A DNA stretch of 64,000 bases from Candidatus Binatia bacterium (GTDB lineage: Bacteria > Desulfobacterota > Binatia > UBA12015). The translations under genes and the position numbers were made by a program. The stretch lies in the NCBI GenBank assembly GCA_965658895.1, contig CBFHUR010000011.1, positions 9,275 through 73,274 on the forward strand. The letters run 5' to 3'. This document shows positions 1,613 through 10,273 of the stretch, piece by piece. Below the pieces are notes generated by a model. It was not told the origin of the DNA, did no database searches, and saw nothing but the letters and a program-made list of their open reading frames with translations. Each line of letters begins with the position of its first letter. Positions within the stretch are counted from its first letter, which is position 1.

Positions 1613-4372
1613 TCACGACAGATTGTTCGGCCCCCCAATTCGAAGGCCATCGGGCAGCGAATCAGCAACGATCCGTGCCCGCAGCTGATCGCTGGTCTCC
1701 TGCACCGACCGCACCAGAGCCGCCAGTTCGCTGAAGCCCTCACCCTCCTCGAGTCGAAGCGCACAGGCGCTCCGCAGTTTCTCGGGTAGATCCCGCGCAC
1801 GGTCACCCGACATGCGTGCCATCTGGGCTAAAGCTAGCGCTCGGGCGGCCGACACGGGCCCGGGCATCGCCGCCATCGCCTCGACGGTGGCGGCGATCCG
1901 ACCGGGTTCCAGAACGGTATCGGCGGGTCCGTAGACGGGGCATCGCGAGCCGAGTCGTCCCAGGGCCCAAAGCTCGGCATCCGACAAGCCCGCCAGGCCG
2001 CCTGCATCACCCCCCAGGGCGTCAAACACCTCGCCTTTGTCGCGGCTTCCCACTCGCTCCAACGAGCCGACCACCTGCCACATCTCGCGCAACTGCTGCG
2101 CAACGGCTTTCTTTCGATTCTTCTTGCGGCGATTGCCCGGAAGAAGCAAGGGCCGCATCTGCTGCAGAAGTGCTGTTTGTTGCGGGCGACTCAAACCGCC
2201 CGCAACGCGCTTCCATAAAACCCACCACTCAGCGCCACATTGACTTGATTTCGGGAAGCAGAGGCCATCATTGAACAGGCGCCACACCTTCTCCGCTCGT
2301 AATTCGTCCCCGACCACACCGTAGCCCGGGCGAACCAGGAAGCCGCATAGGTTGAGCCAGCGCGCCTCATGTTCTGCAGACCGACGCCGAGCCTCACGCT
2401 CGGGCCAGAGAGCCTCCCACAACGCCCGGAGCACGTCAGCTGGCCAGTCGCCGCGCAACAGCCCGAGAGCCTCCTCGAGTGCCCCCATGATGCGGACGGG
2501 ATCCCGAGAGCCCGTAAAGGCCTCCCGAACCAACTCGCTTGCCGCCTCCAGGCGCTGCGGCTCGACAACCACCTCGACCCCGGTGCGCTGCGCATCTCCC
2601 TCCTGCTCCCACGCTTCCGAAGAGGCTTGCGTGCGCAGATCGAACGACAGCTTCCATCGATGCGGCGTATCGCGGGCCTCGCACCAGATCTCGAGCGTTC
2701 CCGTTTCCGTCAACAGGGATCTCAATCGAACAGGAACCGTGCGCGATTCAAGAGACTTGCCGAACTGCAGCCGGCTCCCGAGCGGCGCAAGCGCAACCGA
2801 ATGCTCGGGATCACGGCCGTGAACCGTGCCGGGAACGTCACCGACTCGGGTGGTCGATACATAAAGCGGAAATTGAACATGCTGGTTTGCCGCCAGCTCC
2901 AGGACCGGCTCGGACAAGGCCAGCTCTTCCCCCTCCACCATGCCCCGCCCAGCGATGCAGATCATCGATGGGCCGTCGGGGCCCTCGATTCCCAGAAAAT
3001 AGGCCCGAGCGGACCCACCGGAAATTCGATCCCCGTGGCCCCGCAGCGCACTTCCGTAGGCTACGGCTCCCTGGGCGACGGCCAGATCATGGTCGGCGTC
3101 GTCGAGCTCGACCGGCACCTTTCCGGTCCAATCGGCGAGCTGCTCGCGCAATCGATCTCGAATCCGGCCTGGCTTCAACGCGCCGCCATTGAAAAGGATC
3201 GCATCGGGACAGATCGGCTTCGCGGCACCCCGGCCAGCGATCTGCAGGAATGATGCGAGATGTCGCGTGATCGCGGGATCCGCAGCAAACGGCAATCCGA
3301 ACTCTTGCAGGCCTGCATCGCCTCGGGCGGGAACCGCGTCAGCAGCGACCCGGGGGAAAAACCCCTCGACCAATGTTTCGGCAGCCGTATCCGCCGAGAG
3401 GCTGGCCCGTAGCGTATTGCCCAGAAGCCGGCGCCCGGCTCCGGCCACCGCGATCTCGACGTCGCCGACAGGACCCGACCCACTCGCGCTCAAAAGACGC
3501 TCCTTGGCCAGGCGCACCTGAAGGGTCAGCTGTTGCCAGCGGGCCGCATCCAGCGAGGCGCGCCGGTCCCCGGCGACCACGTGTGCCAGGGCGAGATCCA
3601 TATTATCTCCGCCGACCAGCAGATGCTCGCCCACGAAAGTCCTCTCCAGGCCGGGGCCTGCCGGAGTCTCGCGAACGGCTACCAGAGAAAAATCGGTCGT
3701 TCCGCCACCGACATCGATGACCAGAATCTGTTCGACATTCGCGAGGTGGTCGCGCCAATCCGGATGCGCGGCCGTCCAGGCATAAAGTGCGGCCTGCGGC
3801 TCCTCGAGCAGTCGAACCCGGGAGATTCCTGCCCGTGCTGCCGCAGCGACCGTCAGTTCTCGAGCGACCTCGTCAAAAGAAGCGGGGACAGCGAGGACGA
3901 CATCCTGATCGCCCAGCGGGTGGTCCGGATTCTGTTCGTCCCAGCTCGCCACCATATGGCTCAGATAGCGAGCGGAAACGTCCACCGGGGAAAGCTTCCC
4001 TACCGACAGATCGCTGCCCCAGGGCAAAATCGCGGCCTCGCGGTCCACGCCACCATGGCAGAGCCAGGACTTTGCCGAGGAGATCAGCCGTCCGGCCTGG
4101 CGAGCACCAAGAGTGTTGGCCAGCACCCCGACCACCTCATCGGGCGCCTTCTGCCCCGAGCCCTGCCAGGGAAGATCGAGCGCCCCGGCCGGCAGGTCCT
4201 GCGCTACCGCCAGATAGAGCGCCGAAGGCAGTGTCGGCCTCGGTGCCACCTCTCCCTCGGCGATCAGCTGCCGAATCCCGAACGAGGTGGGCCCGACCGG
4301 CCCTCCCAGGCGCGCGTAGGAAAGCGCCGAATTGGTCGTACCGAGATCAATGCCGACAAGAAATTCAGGCAT
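1613..4372 (-). CDS. Atypical Hsp70-family ATPase with C-terminal DUF3731-type helical domain (919 aa)
   Basis: GIDLGTTNS, SAKSWL, VPASFD, EEPQAA, DVGGGTTDFS, GGDNMD, FNGG. The C-terminal ~300 aa contain RPG and WKR motifs as recalled for DUF3731. Confidence 0.9.
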   Translation of the reverse strand: MPEFLVGIDLGTTNSALSYARLGGPVGPTSFGIRQLIAEGEVAPRPTLPSALYLAVAQDLPAGALDLPWQGSGQKAPDEVVGVLANTLGARQAGRLISSAKSWLCHGGVDREAAILPWGSDLSVGKLSPVDVSARYLSHMVASWDEQNPDHPLGDQDVVLAVPASFDEVARELTVAAAARAGISRVRLLEEPQAALYAWTAAHPDWRDHLANVEQILVIDVGGGTTDFSLVAVRETPAGPGLERTFVGEHLLVGGDNMDLALAHVVAGDRRASLDAARWQQLTLQVRLAKERLLSASGSGPVGDVEIAVAGAGRRLLGNTLRASLSADTAAETLVEGFFPRVAADAVPARGDAGLQEFGLPFAADPAITRHLASFLQIAGRGAAKPICPDAILFNGGALKPGRIRDRLREQLADWTGKVPVELDDADHDLAVAQGAVAYGSALRGHGDRISGGSARAYFLGIEGPDGPSMICIAGRGMVEGEELALSEPVLELAANQHVQFPLYVSTTRVGDVPGTVHGRDPEHSVALAPLGSRLQFGKSLESRTVPVRLRSLLTETGTLEIWCEARDTPHRWKLSFDLRTQASSEAWEQEGDAQRTGVEVVVEPQRLEAASELVREAFTGSRDPVRIMGALEEALGLLRGDWPADVLRALWEALWPEREARRRSAEHEARWLNLCGFLVRPGYGVVGDELRAEKVWRLFNDGLCFPKSSQCGAEWWVLWKRVAGGLSRPQQTALLQQMRPLLLPGNRRKKNRKKAVAQQLREMWQVVGSLERVGSRDKGEVFDALGGDAGGLAGLSDAELWALGRLGSRCPVYGPADTVLEPGRIAATVEAMAAMPGPVSAARALALAQMARMSGDRARDLPEKLRSACALRLEEGEGFSELAALVRSVQETSDQLRARIVADSLPDGLRIGGPNNLS

Positions 4373-6179
4373 CAGACGAACCTCCCTGCGTGCGGACCCC
4401 GAACGTCAGCTGCCACCGTCGGTCCTGATCGGCAACGCAGAAAATCTCGAGGGTACCGATTTCGGTCAAATGGGATTCAAGGTGGACCTGAACCCGCTGA
4501 CCGGCCTCCCCGTCCAATTCGACATACAAGGGCGCCAACTCCTCCAGGTCGTCGGTCTCGAACTCGTCGAGCACCGTGCCGGCGGGATCGTCGTTGCGCG
4601 TCGTTGAGGCATACAGCCGAAAGGAACCTCGTGCACCCAGAAGCAGGCCCAATTCGACCTCGGGAATGCCTGTTGTGGTGCCCTCCTCCAAACCGAAGGG
4701 AACCACACAAACACTTCGCTGCTGGGGCGGCTGACCCGGCACCGCAGGCATCGAACCCGCCATGCCGATATAGTAGGAACGCGCCGCACCACTGCGGATG
4801 CGCATCCCCCGGCCGCGCTGAGCCGCTCCGAAGATCGCGGCACCCCGAGCCACGCCCTCGGCAAGGTTCGCACCGTGGAGCACCCGCGGCGGACCACCCG
4901 AAGCTTCGGGAGCCCAGCTGCCGAGCACCGCCTCGAGGCGTTCCACGAGAAGAGCGGCGCCGAAGACGCCACCATTGAGCAGAACGCAACTCGGAGAGGC
5001 GCCCTCGGCCAACTGGTGTTGGTGGTCACGGAGAAAGGTCGCGAGATGGGCTGTCACCGACGGATCACTCGCATAGGGCAAACCCAACTCGGCCAAACCC
5101 GACTGATCTGCCACCCGCAGCGCCTGGTCCGCCGTCACGTGCGGGAAGAAGCCCTCCACCAGAACGGTCTGCAGATCGGCCCGCGACAGACTCGCGCGGA
5201 TCGTGCCGCCGAGAAGTTTGCGCGAACGCGCCAGCACGACCAAGGGGAACGCCTCGAGTTCGTGGTCGGCCAACAACTTCTCCTTGCCCTCCCGGCAGGA
5301 GGCCACCAGCGATCGAAACTGCTGCGGATCAAGCCGGGTCCCCGCGCCGGCTAGCTGCTGGCGTACGTGAAAGGCCAGTGCCAGATCCATATTGTCGCCG
5401 CCCAAAAGCAGGTGCTCCCCCACCGCCACGCGCTCGAGATGGAGTTCACCTTCTTCTTCAGCAACCACCAGAAGACTGAAATCCGTGGTGCCGCCACCGA
5501 CGTCACATACGAGCATCGAGTCTCCCAGAGAGAGATGCTCGCGCAACCGGGCCCCATCCAGACCGGCCCAATGATAGACGGCCGCCTGTGGCTCTTCGAG
5601 GAGTTGCGGGTTTTCGATCCCGGCCTCGCGCGCTGCACGGATCGTGAGATCTCTGGCCGCCGCGTCAAAGGACGCCGGCACCGTAAGCACGACATGCTGG
5701 TTTTCAAGCCGACGCGACGGATCTTCCGAAGCCATCTGCCAGTCCCAGGCCTCGCGCAAATGTGCCAGATAGGCGGTCGTCGCGGCCCGCGGGGAGACCT
5801 GACGATCCGCCGTTCCGCCTTCGGGGAGCAGCAGTTCCCCCGAGTCCGCCGATGGATGCCCCAGCCAGGATTTCGCGGAATGCACGACCTGGTCAGGATT
5901 CGCACCCAGCCTTTGCAAGGCAAAGCTGCCGACCGGACCCGGGTCGCGCGGCCCCCACGGCGCCTCGAGTGCGCCTGGCTCCTCCTCGGCCCGTGGCAGG
6001 TAGAGAAATGAGGGCAACGCCGTCAGGCTCTCCACTGTTCCGGGCGCGGTCACCTGAGCTATCGGCAGCATGGAATCACTCCCCTCGGGAGCTTCCAGAT
6101 CGATCCATGCCACGGCCGAATTTGTGGTGCCGAGATCGATTCCGACGACGTAACGGCTACCGTCGGGGGCGCGATTCAT
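4365..6179 (-). CDS. Atypical Hsp70-family ATPase (604 aa), nucleotide-binding domain plus short beta domain
   Basis: Same Hsp70 NBD motifs. Start re-assigned to ATG 6179 (ATGA overlap with the upstream stop); its own stop overlaps the next ATG by 8 nt. Confidence 0.9.
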   Translation of the reverse strand: MNRAPDGSRYVVGIDLGTTNSAVAWIDLEAPEGSDSMLPIAQVTAPGTVESLTALPSFLYLPRAEEEPGALEAPWGPRDPGPVGSFALQRLGANPDQVVHSAKSWLGHPSADSGELLLPEGGTADRQVSPRAATTAYLAHLREAWDWQMASEDPSRRLENQHVVLTVPASFDAAARDLTIRAAREAGIENPQLLEEPQAAVYHWAGLDGARLREHLSLGDSMLVCDVGGGTTDFSLLVVAEEEGELHLERVAVGEHLLLGGDNMDLALAFHVRQQLAGAGTRLDPQQFRSLVASCREGKEKLLADHELEAFPLVVLARSRKLLGGTIRASLSRADLQTVLVEGFFPHVTADQALRVADQSGLAELGLPYASDPSVTAHLATFLRDHQHQLAEGASPSCVLLNGGVFGAALLVERLEAVLGSWAPEASGGPPRVLHGANLAEGVARGAAIFGAAQRGRGMRIRSGAARSYYIGMAGSMPAVPGQPPQQRSVCVVPFGLEEGTTTGIPEVELGLLLGARGSFRLYASTTRNDDPAGTVLDEFETDDLEELAPLYVELDGEAGQRVQVHLESHLTEIGTLEIFCVADQDRRWQLTFGVRTQGGSSDA

Positions 6180-6910
6180 CTCGACTCGACCTCGATCTCC
6201 GCAGGCGCCAGAATACGGGAATCGCCGCCGCGGGTCGGCTGCGGCAAGGCCACGTGGGTCGCCACCCAACCTGGATGCACGAGGGTTCCCTTCCACGGAG
6301 ACTCACCGGACGGACTCCCTACCAATCGGACCGAAGCCGGCGAATAGCCCTCCTCCAGAATCACCGCATCCCCCTCTTCCTCGCTTCGCAGGGGGGCGAA
6401 TGCGACCCGTTCCTGCAGGGCCCGCACCAAGCCGGCATGAACCCCACGCGCGGCCGCACCCACCTGATCATCACTGTAGCTGGCAACGTCCTCGGCGATG
6501 AAGTCCAGCAAGCGCGCCTCCTCCTGCAAGGTCGCCAGCAAACGCAACGCGACACCATCGGGGTCCACGATGGCGGGACTCTCCTCGGCGGCATTTTCGG
6601 CAGATGCGCTCTCCTGCGGTTGCCCGGCCGCCAGTTCCGTGAGCTCCACCCGGCGGCTGGCCCGGCCCGCCAAAAAGGCAGCCAACGGACTCAGCAGGAG
6701 CAATACGAAAGCCGGCAATCGCGGATCGGCCTGACCCGCCGCCGCAATCCGGTTCCAATCCCCTCGGGCGAGAGCAGCTTGAAACCCTTCGGCCACGCCC
6801 GGCTCAGGCCACAAGATCACGGTCAAAGCGGGCACCAGCAGTGCCCATGCCGCCAACAGCCCGAGGATCCCCAAAAAATAAGACTTACCGCTACCAGAAC
6901 CTATCGCCAT
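6176..6910 (-). CDS. DUF2760-family membrane protein (GrpE-like C-terminal region, inferred)
   Basis: Two N-terminal hydrophobic segments, then LQEEARLLDFIAED...DQVGAAARGVH...GTLVHPGW...ILAPAEIEV. Start ATG 6910 has GAGG upstream. Confidence 0.8.
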   Translation of the reverse strand: MAIGSGSGKSYFLGILGLLAAWALLVPALTVILWPEPGVAEGFQAALARGDWNRIAAAGQADPRLPAFVLLLLSPLAAFLAGRASRRVELTELAAGQPQESASAENAAEESPAIVDPDGVALRLLATLQEEARLLDFIAEDVASYSDDQVGAAARGVHAGLVRALQERVAFAPLRSEEEGDAVILEEGYSPASVRLVGSPSGESPWKGTLVHPGWVATHVALPQPTRGGDSRILAPAEIEVESR

Positions 6911-6948
6911 AGTTCGATAGCCTCGCGGACGGACGCTCGCGGCGCAAA

Positions 6949-6977
6949 TTGCTGCCTGCCGCGTCGCCATGTAAAGA
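6949..6977 (+). promoter_or_regulatory. Putative sigma70 promoter of gatCAB (leaderless geometry)
   Basis: TTGCTG-17nt-TAAAGA-6nt-ATG(6984); no SD visible. Confidence 0.4.
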
Positions 6978-6983
6978 CCCCCA

Positions 6984-7271
6984 ATGGCGGTTACAATCGA
7001 GGATGTGGAGAAAATGGCTCGGCTCGCGAGGCTCGGCCTGCGGGACGAGGAGAAACATTCGCTGCGAGGCGAGCTGGAATCAATCCTGGCCTACGTCGAA
7101 AAACTCCAGGAACTCGACACCGACGGCGTCGTCCCGACGCTGGGGTCGGGCAACGAACGCCCGGTTTTGCGCGAGGATGCCGTCACCAACGAGGAACGTG
7201 CTCATGAAATGGTTGCCGGGGCCCCCGATCCCGACGACACCTTCCTGCGCGTCCCCAAGATCATCGAGTAG
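6984..7271 (+). CDS. gatC: Asp/Glu-tRNA amidotransferase subunit C
   Basis: VEKMARLARL...ILAYVEKLQELDTDGV.PT...LRED...FLRVPKIIE; directly upstream of gatA. Confidence 0.97.
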   Translation: MAVTIEDVEKMARLARLGLRDEEKHSLRGELESILAYVEKLQELDTDGVVPTLGSGNERPVLREDAVTNEERAHEMVAGAPDPDDTFLRVPKIIE

Positions 7272-7283
7272 GCGCAGGGATCG

Positions 7284-8771
7284 ATGAACATGAATTTGCA
7301 CGATCCCAGCACCTTCACCGTCGCCGGTGCCCGACGCAGCCTAGATGCCCACGAGTTCTCGGCCACGGAACTGACACGCGCCCTGCTCGACAGGATCAGC
7401 CGCGTGGAGGGAAACCTCCACGCCCTGCTCGCCGTCACCGGCGAGCGCGCGCTCGCCGACGCGAATCGAGCCGACGAAAGAATTGCCCGGGGCGACTCCG
7501 CACCGCTGCTCGGAATTCCGATCGTCCTCAAGGATATTTTTGCGACCCGCGGGATCCGGACGACATGCGCGTCCCGGATTCTCGAGAATTTTTCGCCGCC
7601 TTACGACGCGGATGCAACCCAACGCCTTGCAGAGGCTGGAGCGGTCCTCATCGGGAAGGCGAATATGGACGAATTCGCAATGGGTTCGTCGAACGAGAAC
7701 TCGGCCTACGGTGCCTGCCGAAACCCCTGGGACGTGGAGCGAGTACCGGGCGGGTCGTCGGGAGGATCGGCCGTCGCCGTCGCCGCGGGCGAGGCCCTCG
7801 CCTCTCTCGGCACTGATACCGGAGGATCTATCCGCCTCCCGGCAGCCTTCACCGGCGTCTGCGGACTGAAGCCCACTTACGGCCGGGTATCGAGATACGG
7901 TGTGATTGCCTACGCTTCCTCCCTCGACCAGGTCGGGCCCTTTGCGCGCACGGTGGAGGATTTGGCAATGGTGCTCGGCATCATCGCAGGCCACGACCCA
8001 AAAGATTCCACATCGGCTGCCATCGATGTGCCGGACTACCAGGCGTCGCTGACCGGAGATATCCGAGGCCTCAAGCTCGGACTGCCCCGGCAATATTTCG
8101 AAGGCGGGCTCTCCGAGGACGTCGAGCGCGCTGTCCGCGAAGCACTCGAAGTTTTACGCGCCCGTGGTGCCGAGCTCGTTGATATCGACCTGCCGCATAC
8201 GCCCTATGCCGTGGCGACCTACTACCTGATCGCCACCGCCGAGGCTTCCTCGAACCTCGGCCGCTATGATGGCGTCCGCTACGGTCATCGAACCGATAAA
8301 GTCACCAATCTGCTCGAGATGTACCGCGAGACCCGCGTCGAGGGATTCGGCCCCGAGGTCAAAAGAAGGATTATTCTGGGAACCTACGCTCTCTCGGCAG
8401 GCTACTACGACGCCTATTACCGCAAGGCGCTTCAGGCCCGCACTCTAATCCGACAGGATTTTGAGGAAGCCTACAAACTCTGTGACGCCATCGTGACACC
8501 GACCGCGCCGCAGACCGCCTTCCGTCTGGGAGAAAAAGCCTCCGATCCTCTCTCGATGTACCTGTCGGATGTCTTTACCAACTCGGCGAACCTGGCCGGG
8601 ATCCCTGGCCTCGTGATCCCCTGTGGTTTCGACACCAAAAAACTGCCGATCGGGCTGCAAATCCTTGCCCCTTCCTTTGCCGAGGCCACCGCGCTGCGCG
8701 CCGGCGATGCCTACCAGAAGGACACCGACTGGCATCTGGAGGCTCCCGACCTCTCGGGAGGTCAGAAGTGA
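7284..8771 (+). CDS. gatA: Asp/Glu-tRNA amidotransferase subunit A
   Basis: Amidase signature GGSSGGSA...[13 protein letters not shown]; [13 protein letters not shown]; [11 protein letters not shown]. Confidence 0.98.
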
Positions 8772-10273
8772 TGAACGGAGAACGCCAAATGCCCCCTCAG
8801 GACGACGAGCTCGAGAGTCGCTACGGTGATTGGGAACCGGTCATCGGACTCGAGGTCCATGCCCAGCTCTTGACGGTTTCCAAACTCTTCTGCGGCTGTT
8901 CGACTTCGTTTGGCGCTGAACCAAATGCTCATACCTGCCCTGTATGCCTCGGCATGCCGGGAGTCCTGCCCGTGCTGAACCGCCGTGCGGTCGAGCTTTC
9001 CGTGCGAACAGCTCTGGCGACCGATTGCTCGCTGCCGGAGACCGCGATCTGGTCCCGAAAAAACTACTTCTACCCGGATCTGCCCAAAGGTTATCAGGTC
9101 AGCATGTATGAGGAACCGCTGGCCGTCGGCGGGCACCTCGACGTCCCTCTCGAGGACAAGACGACCCGGGTAAGGATCACCCGCATTCATATGGAGGAGG
9201 ATGCCGGCAAGAGCATTCATGATGCACGCGAACCCTACTCGCGCGTGGACCTGAACCGTGCCGGAGTCCCCTTGATGGAGATCGTGAGCGAACCTGATAT
9301 CCGCTCCCCCGCCGAGGCCGCCGCCTACATGCGTACCCTGCGGACCCTTCTCCAGCATATTGGTTCCTGTGACGGCAATATGGAAGAGGGCAGCATGCGT
9401 TGCGATGCGAATGTTTCGGTCCGCAAGCGAGGGAGCGAAAAGCTCGAGACGCGCGCCGAGATCAAGAACATGAACTCCTTCCGGTCGATCGAACGCGCGG
9501 TCGACTGGGAGATTCTCCGCCAGATCGATCTGCGCGAGAGCGGCGGAACCGTGGTGCAGGAAACCCGCCTTTGGGACGCCGATCGCGAGCGAACCGAATC
9601 GATGCGATCCAAGGAAGACGCGCACGACTACCGATATTTCCCCGAACCCGACCTGCCCCCGCTGCGCGTGACCCCCACGGAGATCGAGGCGATCCGCGCA
9701 GAGCTTCCCGAGTTGCCGGCAGAGCGCCGCACCCGCTTCGAGGCAGACTATGGGCTGTCGGCCTACGATGCCTCGGTGCTGACGAGTCGGCGCGATATCG
9801 GCGACTATTTCGAGGCGGCCGTCGCCAGCCACGCCAACCCCAAATCCATTGCCAACTGGGTGATGGGAGACGTTCTGCGAATCGTCCGCGACCGTCGGCT
9901 GGATGACGCGTTGGTGATCGAGCAATGGCCGATTCCCGCCACCGAGCTCGGCGCCCTCGTGGCGCGGATCGACGACGAGACCATCAGTGGTAAAATCGCG
10001 AAAACGGTCTTCGACGAGATGGTGAGCTCGGGCAGCAGTCCCGATCAGGTGATCGAGAAAAAGGGCCTCCGACAGCTCACGGATCCAGGCGCGATCGCCG
10101 AAGTGGTGGCACGCGTTCTGGCAGCACACCCTGATAAAGTTGAGGAGTTTCGAGCGGGCAAGGAAAAGCTTCTCGGCTTTTTTGTGGGCCTCGTGATGAA
10201 GGAAACCCAAGGGAAGGCAAACCCCAAGGCGGTCAATGAAACGCTCCGGGCGCAGCTCGCTGGAGGAGCCTGA
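8768..10273 (+). CDS. gatB: Asp/Glu-tRNA amidotransferase subunit B
   Basis: [45 protein letters not shown]-terminal YqeY-like domain. Confidence 0.98.

Follow-up and report, generated by a model that had tools for sequence, protein, structure and literature searches.

The systems closest to the locus described here are the housekeeping DnaK-DnaJ-GrpE chaperone; the E. coli Hsp70 HscC (ybeW), which reportedly has a reduced lid and works independently of GrpE with the membrane tail-anchored J-proteins DjlB and DjlC (ybeS, ybeV); and the two-Hsp70 systems of eukaryotes, namely Hsp70-Hsp110, in which the two ATPase domains make the contacts that give Hsp110 its exchange activity, and the yeast Ssb-Ssz1-Zuotin triad. 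Here we analyze a three-gene operon in a stretch of DNA of 64,000 nucleotides (nt; hereafter the window) from a Candidatus Binatia bacterium (assembly GCA_965658895.1, contig CBFHUR010000011.1). Packed across positions 1613-6910 of the window and read from the minus strand in the order A, B, C, its genes code for a DUF2760 protein (A), an Hsp70-like ATPase without a lid (B) and an Hsp70-like protein that continues into a DUF3731 domain (C; Table 1). The trio shares with DnaK-DnaJ-GrpE an Hsp70 ATPase domain whose catalytic set is complete in both B and C, and a beta domain in C that is predicted to be folded and placed as that of DnaK in its docked, ATP-type state. Unlike DnaK, B and C have no helical lid and carry an R-I-x-G-G motif in place of the VLLL linker, and the trio has no linked J-protein or GrpE, its dedicated partner being a DUF2760 protein of no known fold. 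The likeness to HscC-DjlB/DjlC is that of a specialized, non-housekeeping Hsp70 encoded beside its own membrane-anchored partner; however, the partner here has no J-domain, and there are two Hsp70 paralogues, one of which bears a DUF3731. With the eukaryotic systems it has in common two diverged ATPases of the Hsp70 superfamily, one of them extended or atypical, and, in the case of the yeast triad, a small tethering cofactor; yet Zuotin is a J-protein, and the pairing of B with C is one that we only infer.

We consider it fairly probable, though well short of certain, that the three genes encode one obligate and dedicated Hsp70-type machine, which is apparently independent of J-proteins and of the classical route through the J-domain and the interdomain linker. 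The argument for a single machine begins with the distribution of its genes. A scan for DUF2760 with the pattern D[AD][QED]VGAAAR, using one genome per species, returned 80 loci, which span Myxococcota, Vibrio, Verrucomicrobiota, Alphaproteobacteria, Acidobacteriota, Comamonadaceae, Bdellovibrionota, Planctomycetota, Cloacimonadota and other groups. Gene order was counted in the 56 loci with enough downstream sequence: 51 of these have A, B and C (the last with its DUF3731) in this order on one strand, an arrangement far beyond chance, and the other five hold A and B only, in genomes that all carry a DUF3731-Hsp70 elsewhere. In 21 of 34 orthologous loci, the stop codon of A shares 1 or 4 nt with the start codon of B. 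Of 301 genomes of the window's phylum, 32 have PF10816 (DUF2760), and PF12531 (DUF3731) occurs in exactly these 32 (Fisher p = 7e-44), a patchy distribution that covers 25 of 199 genera. The two genes are adjacent in 19 of these 32 genomes, 5-15 kb apart in five, 250 kb apart in one (a closed genome) and on separate contigs in seven. Since the co-occurrence persists when the genes are unlinked, it is strong evidence of functional dependence, beyond what operon hitch-hiking would produce.

A preliminary description of this DNA, made from its sequence, had proposed a self-contained module; the overlaps by which it joined the three same-strand genes are indeed there, and the co-occurrence check that it called for was passed very strongly. 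A Pfam tally of 120 flanking open reading frames (ORFs) turned up no conserved fourth component: the flanks vary, and the only synteny shared is at the level of the genus. The stk locus of Myxococcus xanthus, considered as a possible further instance of the trio, was rejected, as StkA (540 amino acids, aa) is followed there by an SCP2-like protein and a small protein.

B and C are Hsp70 paralogues that arose by an ancient duplication, and their catalytic residues are intact. Both clear the gathering cut-off of the Pfam HSP70 family (PF00012; 60.4 bits for B and 58.0 bits for C against a cut-off of 20.6, E 1e-16), the match being limited to a part of the ATPase domain (profile positions ~107-300 of 599). 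The NCBIfam models of DnaK give 51-61 bits against cut-offs of 648-823, and those of HscA give 73-85 bits against cut-offs of 620-709, so that neither protein falls within canonical DnaK or within HscA. When 20 orthologues of B and 24 of C are aligned, the motifs GIDLGTT, SAKSW, EEPQAA and DVGGGTTD are invariant; the counterparts of the DnaK catalytic residues D8, K70, E171, D194, T199 and D201 are intact in both proteins, and those of C (D9, K101, E191, D220, T225 and D227) are invariant in all 24 of its orthologues. B orthologues drawn from across phyla have a mean column identity of 58%. At the position of the DnaK VLLL linker, B reads RIRSGAARSYY and C reads RISGGSARAYF, and the pattern G-x-R-I-x-G-G-x-A-R-x-Y is invariant there in the B and C orthologues. 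The ATPase motifs and the replaced linker had both been pointed out in the preliminary description, and the orthologues bear it out on each.

A few orthologues are interrupted. In a genome of the Verrucomicrobiales (L068:11343-13763), C is split between the halves of its ATPase domain by ~2.4 kb, the ORFs of the insert having no Pfam match, and at L032, L060, L074, L079 and G455:C4:581032-581753 B or C orthologues lie in two to four frame-shifted pieces, which are either assembly errors or decaying copies.

Beyond the ATPase domain, the AlphaFold2 model of C (predicted local distance difference test, pLDDT, of 81) comprises, after an ATPase domain of residues 1-443, a ten-stranded beta domain (457-577), a disordered stretch (579-601) and sixteen helices (605-901), these last belonging to the all-helical DUF3731, which stands where the lid of DnaK would sit. 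The best Foldseek matches of this model are full two-domain Hsp70s, with TMq values of 0.41-0.43 against domain-docked structures (ATP-bound DnaK and AMPylated BiP) as opposed to 0.29-0.31 against undocked ADP-state or lid-truncated ones, a gap equivalent to ~100 residues of TM-score. This gap indicates that, in C, the beta domain takes up the docked position of the Hsp70 substrate-binding beta domain, on which it superposes, and we accordingly predict from the model that it is a beta domain of the substrate-binding type. As B aligns with C through the same region and ends immediately after it, B is likely to consist of an ATPase domain and a beta domain without a helical lid. The earlier view that both proteins lack a substrate-binding domain is thus probably wrong: C has a docked-type beta domain in its model, B shares the region, and what is missing is the lid alone. 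Across phyla, the beta domain of B is conserved to an unusual degree (mean column identity of 59%), which suggests that it binds one fixed ligand or partner rather than unfolded clients in general. DUF3731 displays many invariant arginines; a search for its identity returned marginal matches to armadillo repeats only (E 0.018) and no second Pfam family.

The third protein, A, matches Pfam PF10816 with E 7e-42 over residues 141-260 of its 264-aa frame. Its AlphaFold2 model (pLDDT 81) begins with a pair of long hydrophobic helices; after a disordered spacer come three further helices and a sheet of four strands, and the chain ends in an extended tail. A Foldseek comparison of this model with solved structures gave no fold match (best E 0.2 among 74 matches up to E 10). 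From the positive-inside rule we predict an N-in/C-in topology: because the second hydrophobic helix is followed by RASRR, the DUF2760 domain should face the cytoplasm. At the 50% identity level, the family comprises 2,185 clusters among 1.84 billion representatives. The members listed are all small proteins with the domain at their extreme C-terminus, and the only fused one that we saw (P0087) has gained a coiled coil. The tail is the most distinctive element of the domain: 119 of 150 family representatives have the motif [VI][LIV]APAE[VI]E, in 104 of these 119 only one or two residues follow it, and the glutamates E238 and E240 of A are invariant. As this peptide is near-invariant and lies at a free C-terminus, it looks like a docking element.

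Drawing on these features, we posit the following mechanism. A would be a tether or adaptor, with an N-terminal membrane anchor, a flexible spacer, a cytoplasmic domain and the tail ΦΦAPAE[VI]EΦ, and would act near the inner face of the membrane by recruiting or activating B and C. B and C would cooperate in the manner of the two-Hsp70 systems (Hsp70-Hsp110 and the Ssb-Ssz1-Zuotin triad), cycling without J-domain stimulation through the usual linker route, with C contributing an additional alpha-solenoid-like platform in the form of its DUF3731, and their beta domains would hold one fixed ligand or partner in place of general unfolded clients. A more specific version, which we offer tentatively and regard as rather doubtful, is that DUF2760 represents a new class of Hsp70 cofactor that takes the place of the J-protein and possibly that of the exchange factor as well, its tail switching on a membrane-tethered heteromeric pair of lidless Hsp70s. 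The tail could insert into the cleft of the ATPase domain that normally takes the VLLL linker, or, by analogy with the EEVD peptides bound in the clamps of tetratricopeptide repeat (TPR) proteins, into the arginine-rich alpha-solenoid DUF3731 of C. Were this cofactor role true, it would amount to a third way of driving the Hsp70 cycle in bacteria.

Bacterial relatives of Hsp70 beyond DnaK and HscA are almost unstudied, and the trio offers a clean entry point to them, in that its parts are genetically inseparable and its own cofactor apparently replaces the J-protein. It is present in the tractable species V. natriegens and V. cholerae, and working out its mechanism would test how universal the mechanism of J-domain and hydrophobic linker is among Hsp70s. 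Both DUFs were already known to Pfam; to this the present analysis adds their linkage-independent co-occurrence, the predicted beta domain of the substrate-binding type, the invariant C-terminal tail, the status of a core gene in Vibrio and the identification of the trio with VC1375-VC1373 (see below). The searchable literature has no mention of DUF2760, DUF3731 or their Pfam accessions, and a 2026 review treats DnaK derivatives of such a kind as unexplored.

Several points weigh against a dedicated, J-independent and membrane-tethered machine. The genomes with the trio all have DnaJ and GrpE elsewhere, so that help from these in trans is possible. The beta domain has no detectable similarity to that of DnaK at the sequence level, either by hhalign against the DnaK of the same genome or in profile searches against PDB sequences, and its identity as a substrate-binding domain consequently derives from one predicted model. 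On the side of J-independence, in the profile alignment with E. coli DnaK the residues Y145, N147, D148, R167, N170 and T173, which are contacts of the J-domain, read S, D, A, a variable residue, E and Q, respectively; these changes fit J-independence without proving it. As to tethering, a strict transmembrane segment is found in 41 of 150 DUF2760 representatives only, so that membrane association may not be general in the family; other representatives begin with a short amphipathic, basic-hydrophobic helix. The preliminary description had called the machine membrane-associated, which holds clearly, by its two predicted transmembrane helices, for the copy in the window but is only plausible for the family as a whole, most members of which start with the short amphipathic helix. 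Finally, in at least one other genome of the same phylum (G221, contig C31:10441-13635) a DUF2760 gene seems to be directly followed by a DUF3731-Hsp70 gene at 2.5 kb from domain to domain, which leaves no room for B; in such a variant, B may have been lost or lie at another place, and it implies that the B-C pair may not always be needed at one locus.

The first of these points leads to an alternative in which B and C are ordinary specialized chaperone paralogues served in trans by the housekeeping DnaJ and GrpE, with DUF2760 as a client, a regulator or an operon passenger. There is no J-domain or GrpE on the contig of the window, just as the preliminary description had found none nearby, and when the J-domain and GrpE of the same genome were used as queries against 82 related loci (1.06 Mb), they returned one J-domain match and no GrpE. 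The requisite partners are nevertheless encoded off the contig: the genome has grpE-dnaK-dnaJ on another contig (C9), a second dnaJ and a second Hsp70 with a J-protein of its own. B and C also retain, besides the catalytic set, the counterparts of the allosteric residues P143 and R151 of DnaK (together with E171 in the same profile alignment), and the model of C is in a DnaK-like docked state. This alternative is nonetheless unlikely in our estimate, given that A and C co-occur perfectly even when unlinked, that A is translationally coupled to B, and that the VLLL linker and several of the J-contact positions have been swapped for other conserved residues. The second Hsp70 just mentioned (C2:259837-262142, L084) is full-length and scores 585 bits to PF00012, and a gene for a weak J-domain protein immediately precedes it on its strand; the two may form a pair of the HscC/Djl or HscA/HscB kind, separate from the grpE-dnaK-dnaJ of C9.

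DUF2760 could instead be a membrane-anchored analogue of GrpE, that is, an exchange factor built from a helix pair and a beta head, and the order of elements in the model of A, helices and then a small beta sheet, as well as the absence of any GrpE linked to the module, would agree with this. However, GrpE does not figure among the best 50 of the 74 Foldseek matches of A, none of which is better than E 0.2, and hhalign against the GrpE of the same genome gives a probability of 0.2%; we hold this explanation to be very unlikely.

The orthologues in Vibrio bear on the remaining alternatives and link the trio to published data. DUF2760 is annotated in V. cholerae, V. vulnificus, V. parahaemolyticus, V. 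harveyi, V. natriegens and many further species; of 151 Vibrio species genomes, 146 have it as a single copy, and three of the five genomes that lack it are only 1.0-3.1 Mb in size. It is hence a core gene with vertical behavior in this genus. On a V. cholerae contig, genes for a DUF2760 protein of 210 aa, an Hsp70 of 633 aa and an Hsp70-DUF3731 of 942 aa follow one another in the same order, with a divergent CHASE-GGDEF gene next to them. A 22-nt site of HapR listed for VC1375<>VC1376 (PMC10328515) has a single exact occurrence, in the intergenic region upstream of this trio, and its unique placement identifies the trio as VC1375-VC1374-VC1373. These are true orthologues of the window's genes; unlike A, VC1375 has one hydrophobic N-terminal segment and a spacer of VEKPVEKIV-type repeats in place of two transmembrane helices, and the flanks of the V. 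cholerae trio, unlike those in the window, are GGDEF genes, of which there are three (the divergent CHASE-GGDEF and two downstream).

Quorum-sensing control of the VC1375 promoter has already been reported, in a chromatin immunoprecipitation sequencing (ChIP-seq) study that found HapR to activate it in vivo and in vitro (PMC10328515). The distance of the HapR site to the start codon is 45 nt for VC1376 (CHASE-GGDEF) and 471 nt for VC1375 (DUF2760), and by the sequence of the interval (L085:7464-8001) alone it may belong to either of the two divergent promoters. A reporter screen has VC1374 (operon VC1373-1375) among 192 genes repressed in biofilms, and two transcriptome tables show modest changes of VC1373 or VC1374. 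Older annotation calls the genes of the V. cholerae trio 'hypothetical' or 'DnaK-related protein'; two further literature matches to 'VC1374' were set aside, as they are to the name of a strain and not to the gene. The published data that we found on VC1375-VC1373 concern expression alone.

That the trio might serve in anti-phage defense had been suggested in the preliminary description. Such a system, or another conflict system with the Hsp70-like ATPase as sensor or effector, would suit the patchy distribution in the window's phylum, the PD-(D/E)XK or AAA_21 genes seen in a few flanks and a weak match (18.5 and 18.9 bits, E ~1e-4) to PDC-M61B, a PADLOC candidate. However, those scores are far below membership and A is without any PADLOC match, effector domains of the nuclease, protease or pore type are absent from the module, and the gene neighbors are GGDEF, RNase T and HrpA genes in V. 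cholerae and gatCAB, serS and a UPF0102 gene in the window, where the flanks are housekeeping genes. Taken with the core-gene behavior of DUF2760 in Vibrio, the lack of a real PADLOC match and these housekeeping flanks make a defense role highly improbable. Least credible of all is that B and C are not chaperones but membrane-tethered polymerizing ATPases in the manner of FtsA or MreB, for, despite weak MreB_Mbl matches (E 1e-6 to 4e-6, under the cut-off) and the membrane anchor on their partner protein, their Hsp70 scores are far above the MreB scores, the best structural matches are full two-domain Hsp70s and an Hsp70-type beta domain follows the ATPase domain.

Table 1. Features of the three-gene locus and its immediate surroundings, in coordinates of the window.
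Feature	Position	Strand	Basis or remark
Gene A, DUF2760 protein, 244 aa	6176-6910	minus	ORF and Pfam PF10816
Two hydrophobic helices of A (~residues 11-33 and 65-80), then RASRR	6671-6880	minus	Sequence; helices H8-33 and H65-95 in the model
DUF2760 domain of A, three helices and a small four-stranded sheet	6191-6550	minus	Pfam and model
C-terminal tail of A, ILAPAEIEVESR, free C-terminus	6179-6214	minus	Family motif
ATGA overlap, stop of A and start of B	6176-6179	minus	Sequence
Gene B, Hsp70-like ATPase without lid, 604 aa, ATG at 6179	4365-6179	minus	ORF and Pfam
B, ATPase domain, ~residues 1-455	4815-6179	minus	Sequence and Pfam
B, R-I-R-S-G linker and beta domain, ~residues 456-604	4368-4814	minus	Sequence
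8-nt overlap ATGCCTGA, start of C and stop of B	4365-4372	minus	Sequence
Gene C, Hsp70-like protein with DUF3731, 919 aa	1613-4372	minus	ORF and Pfam
C, ATPase (nucleotide-binding) domain, residues 1-443	3044-4372	minus	Sequence, Pfam and model
C, R-I-S-G-G linker and beta domain, residues 444-578	2639-3043	minus	Model; predicted equivalent of the Hsp70 substrate-binding beta domain
C, all-helical DUF3731, residues 602-919	1616-2569	minus	Pfam PF12531, E 7e-70; model
Intergenic region between A and gatC, 73 nt (13 nt if A starts at 6970)	6911-6983		Operon promoter presumed here
UPF0102 gene (YraN-like, nuclease-related)	1088-1576	minus	36 nt downstream of C

Turning to the surroundings of the trio, no sigma-70 consensus was found in 6911-6983, and a scan for the operon promoter and terminator was likewise empty. 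On the upstream side, gatCAB (6984-10273) is divergent from the operon, with gatC nearest to A; on the downstream side, serS comes after the UPF0102 gene, which is not conserved beside the trio elsewhere. The products of B (604 aa) and C (919 aa) occur exactly, as called genes, in the sequence records, and a GGGAGG ribosome-binding site lies 9 nt upstream of the overlap ATGCCTGA at which C starts. The start of A may be at 6910 or at an upstream ATG at 6970: its ORF spans 6176-6970 and gives 264 aa from the latter as against 244 aa from the former, and homologues at 83-95% identity have been called at 243-244 aa. A more distant relative, 58% identical to A (P0008), displays an in-frame N-terminal extension with a similar 'AAIC...R-rich' stretch.

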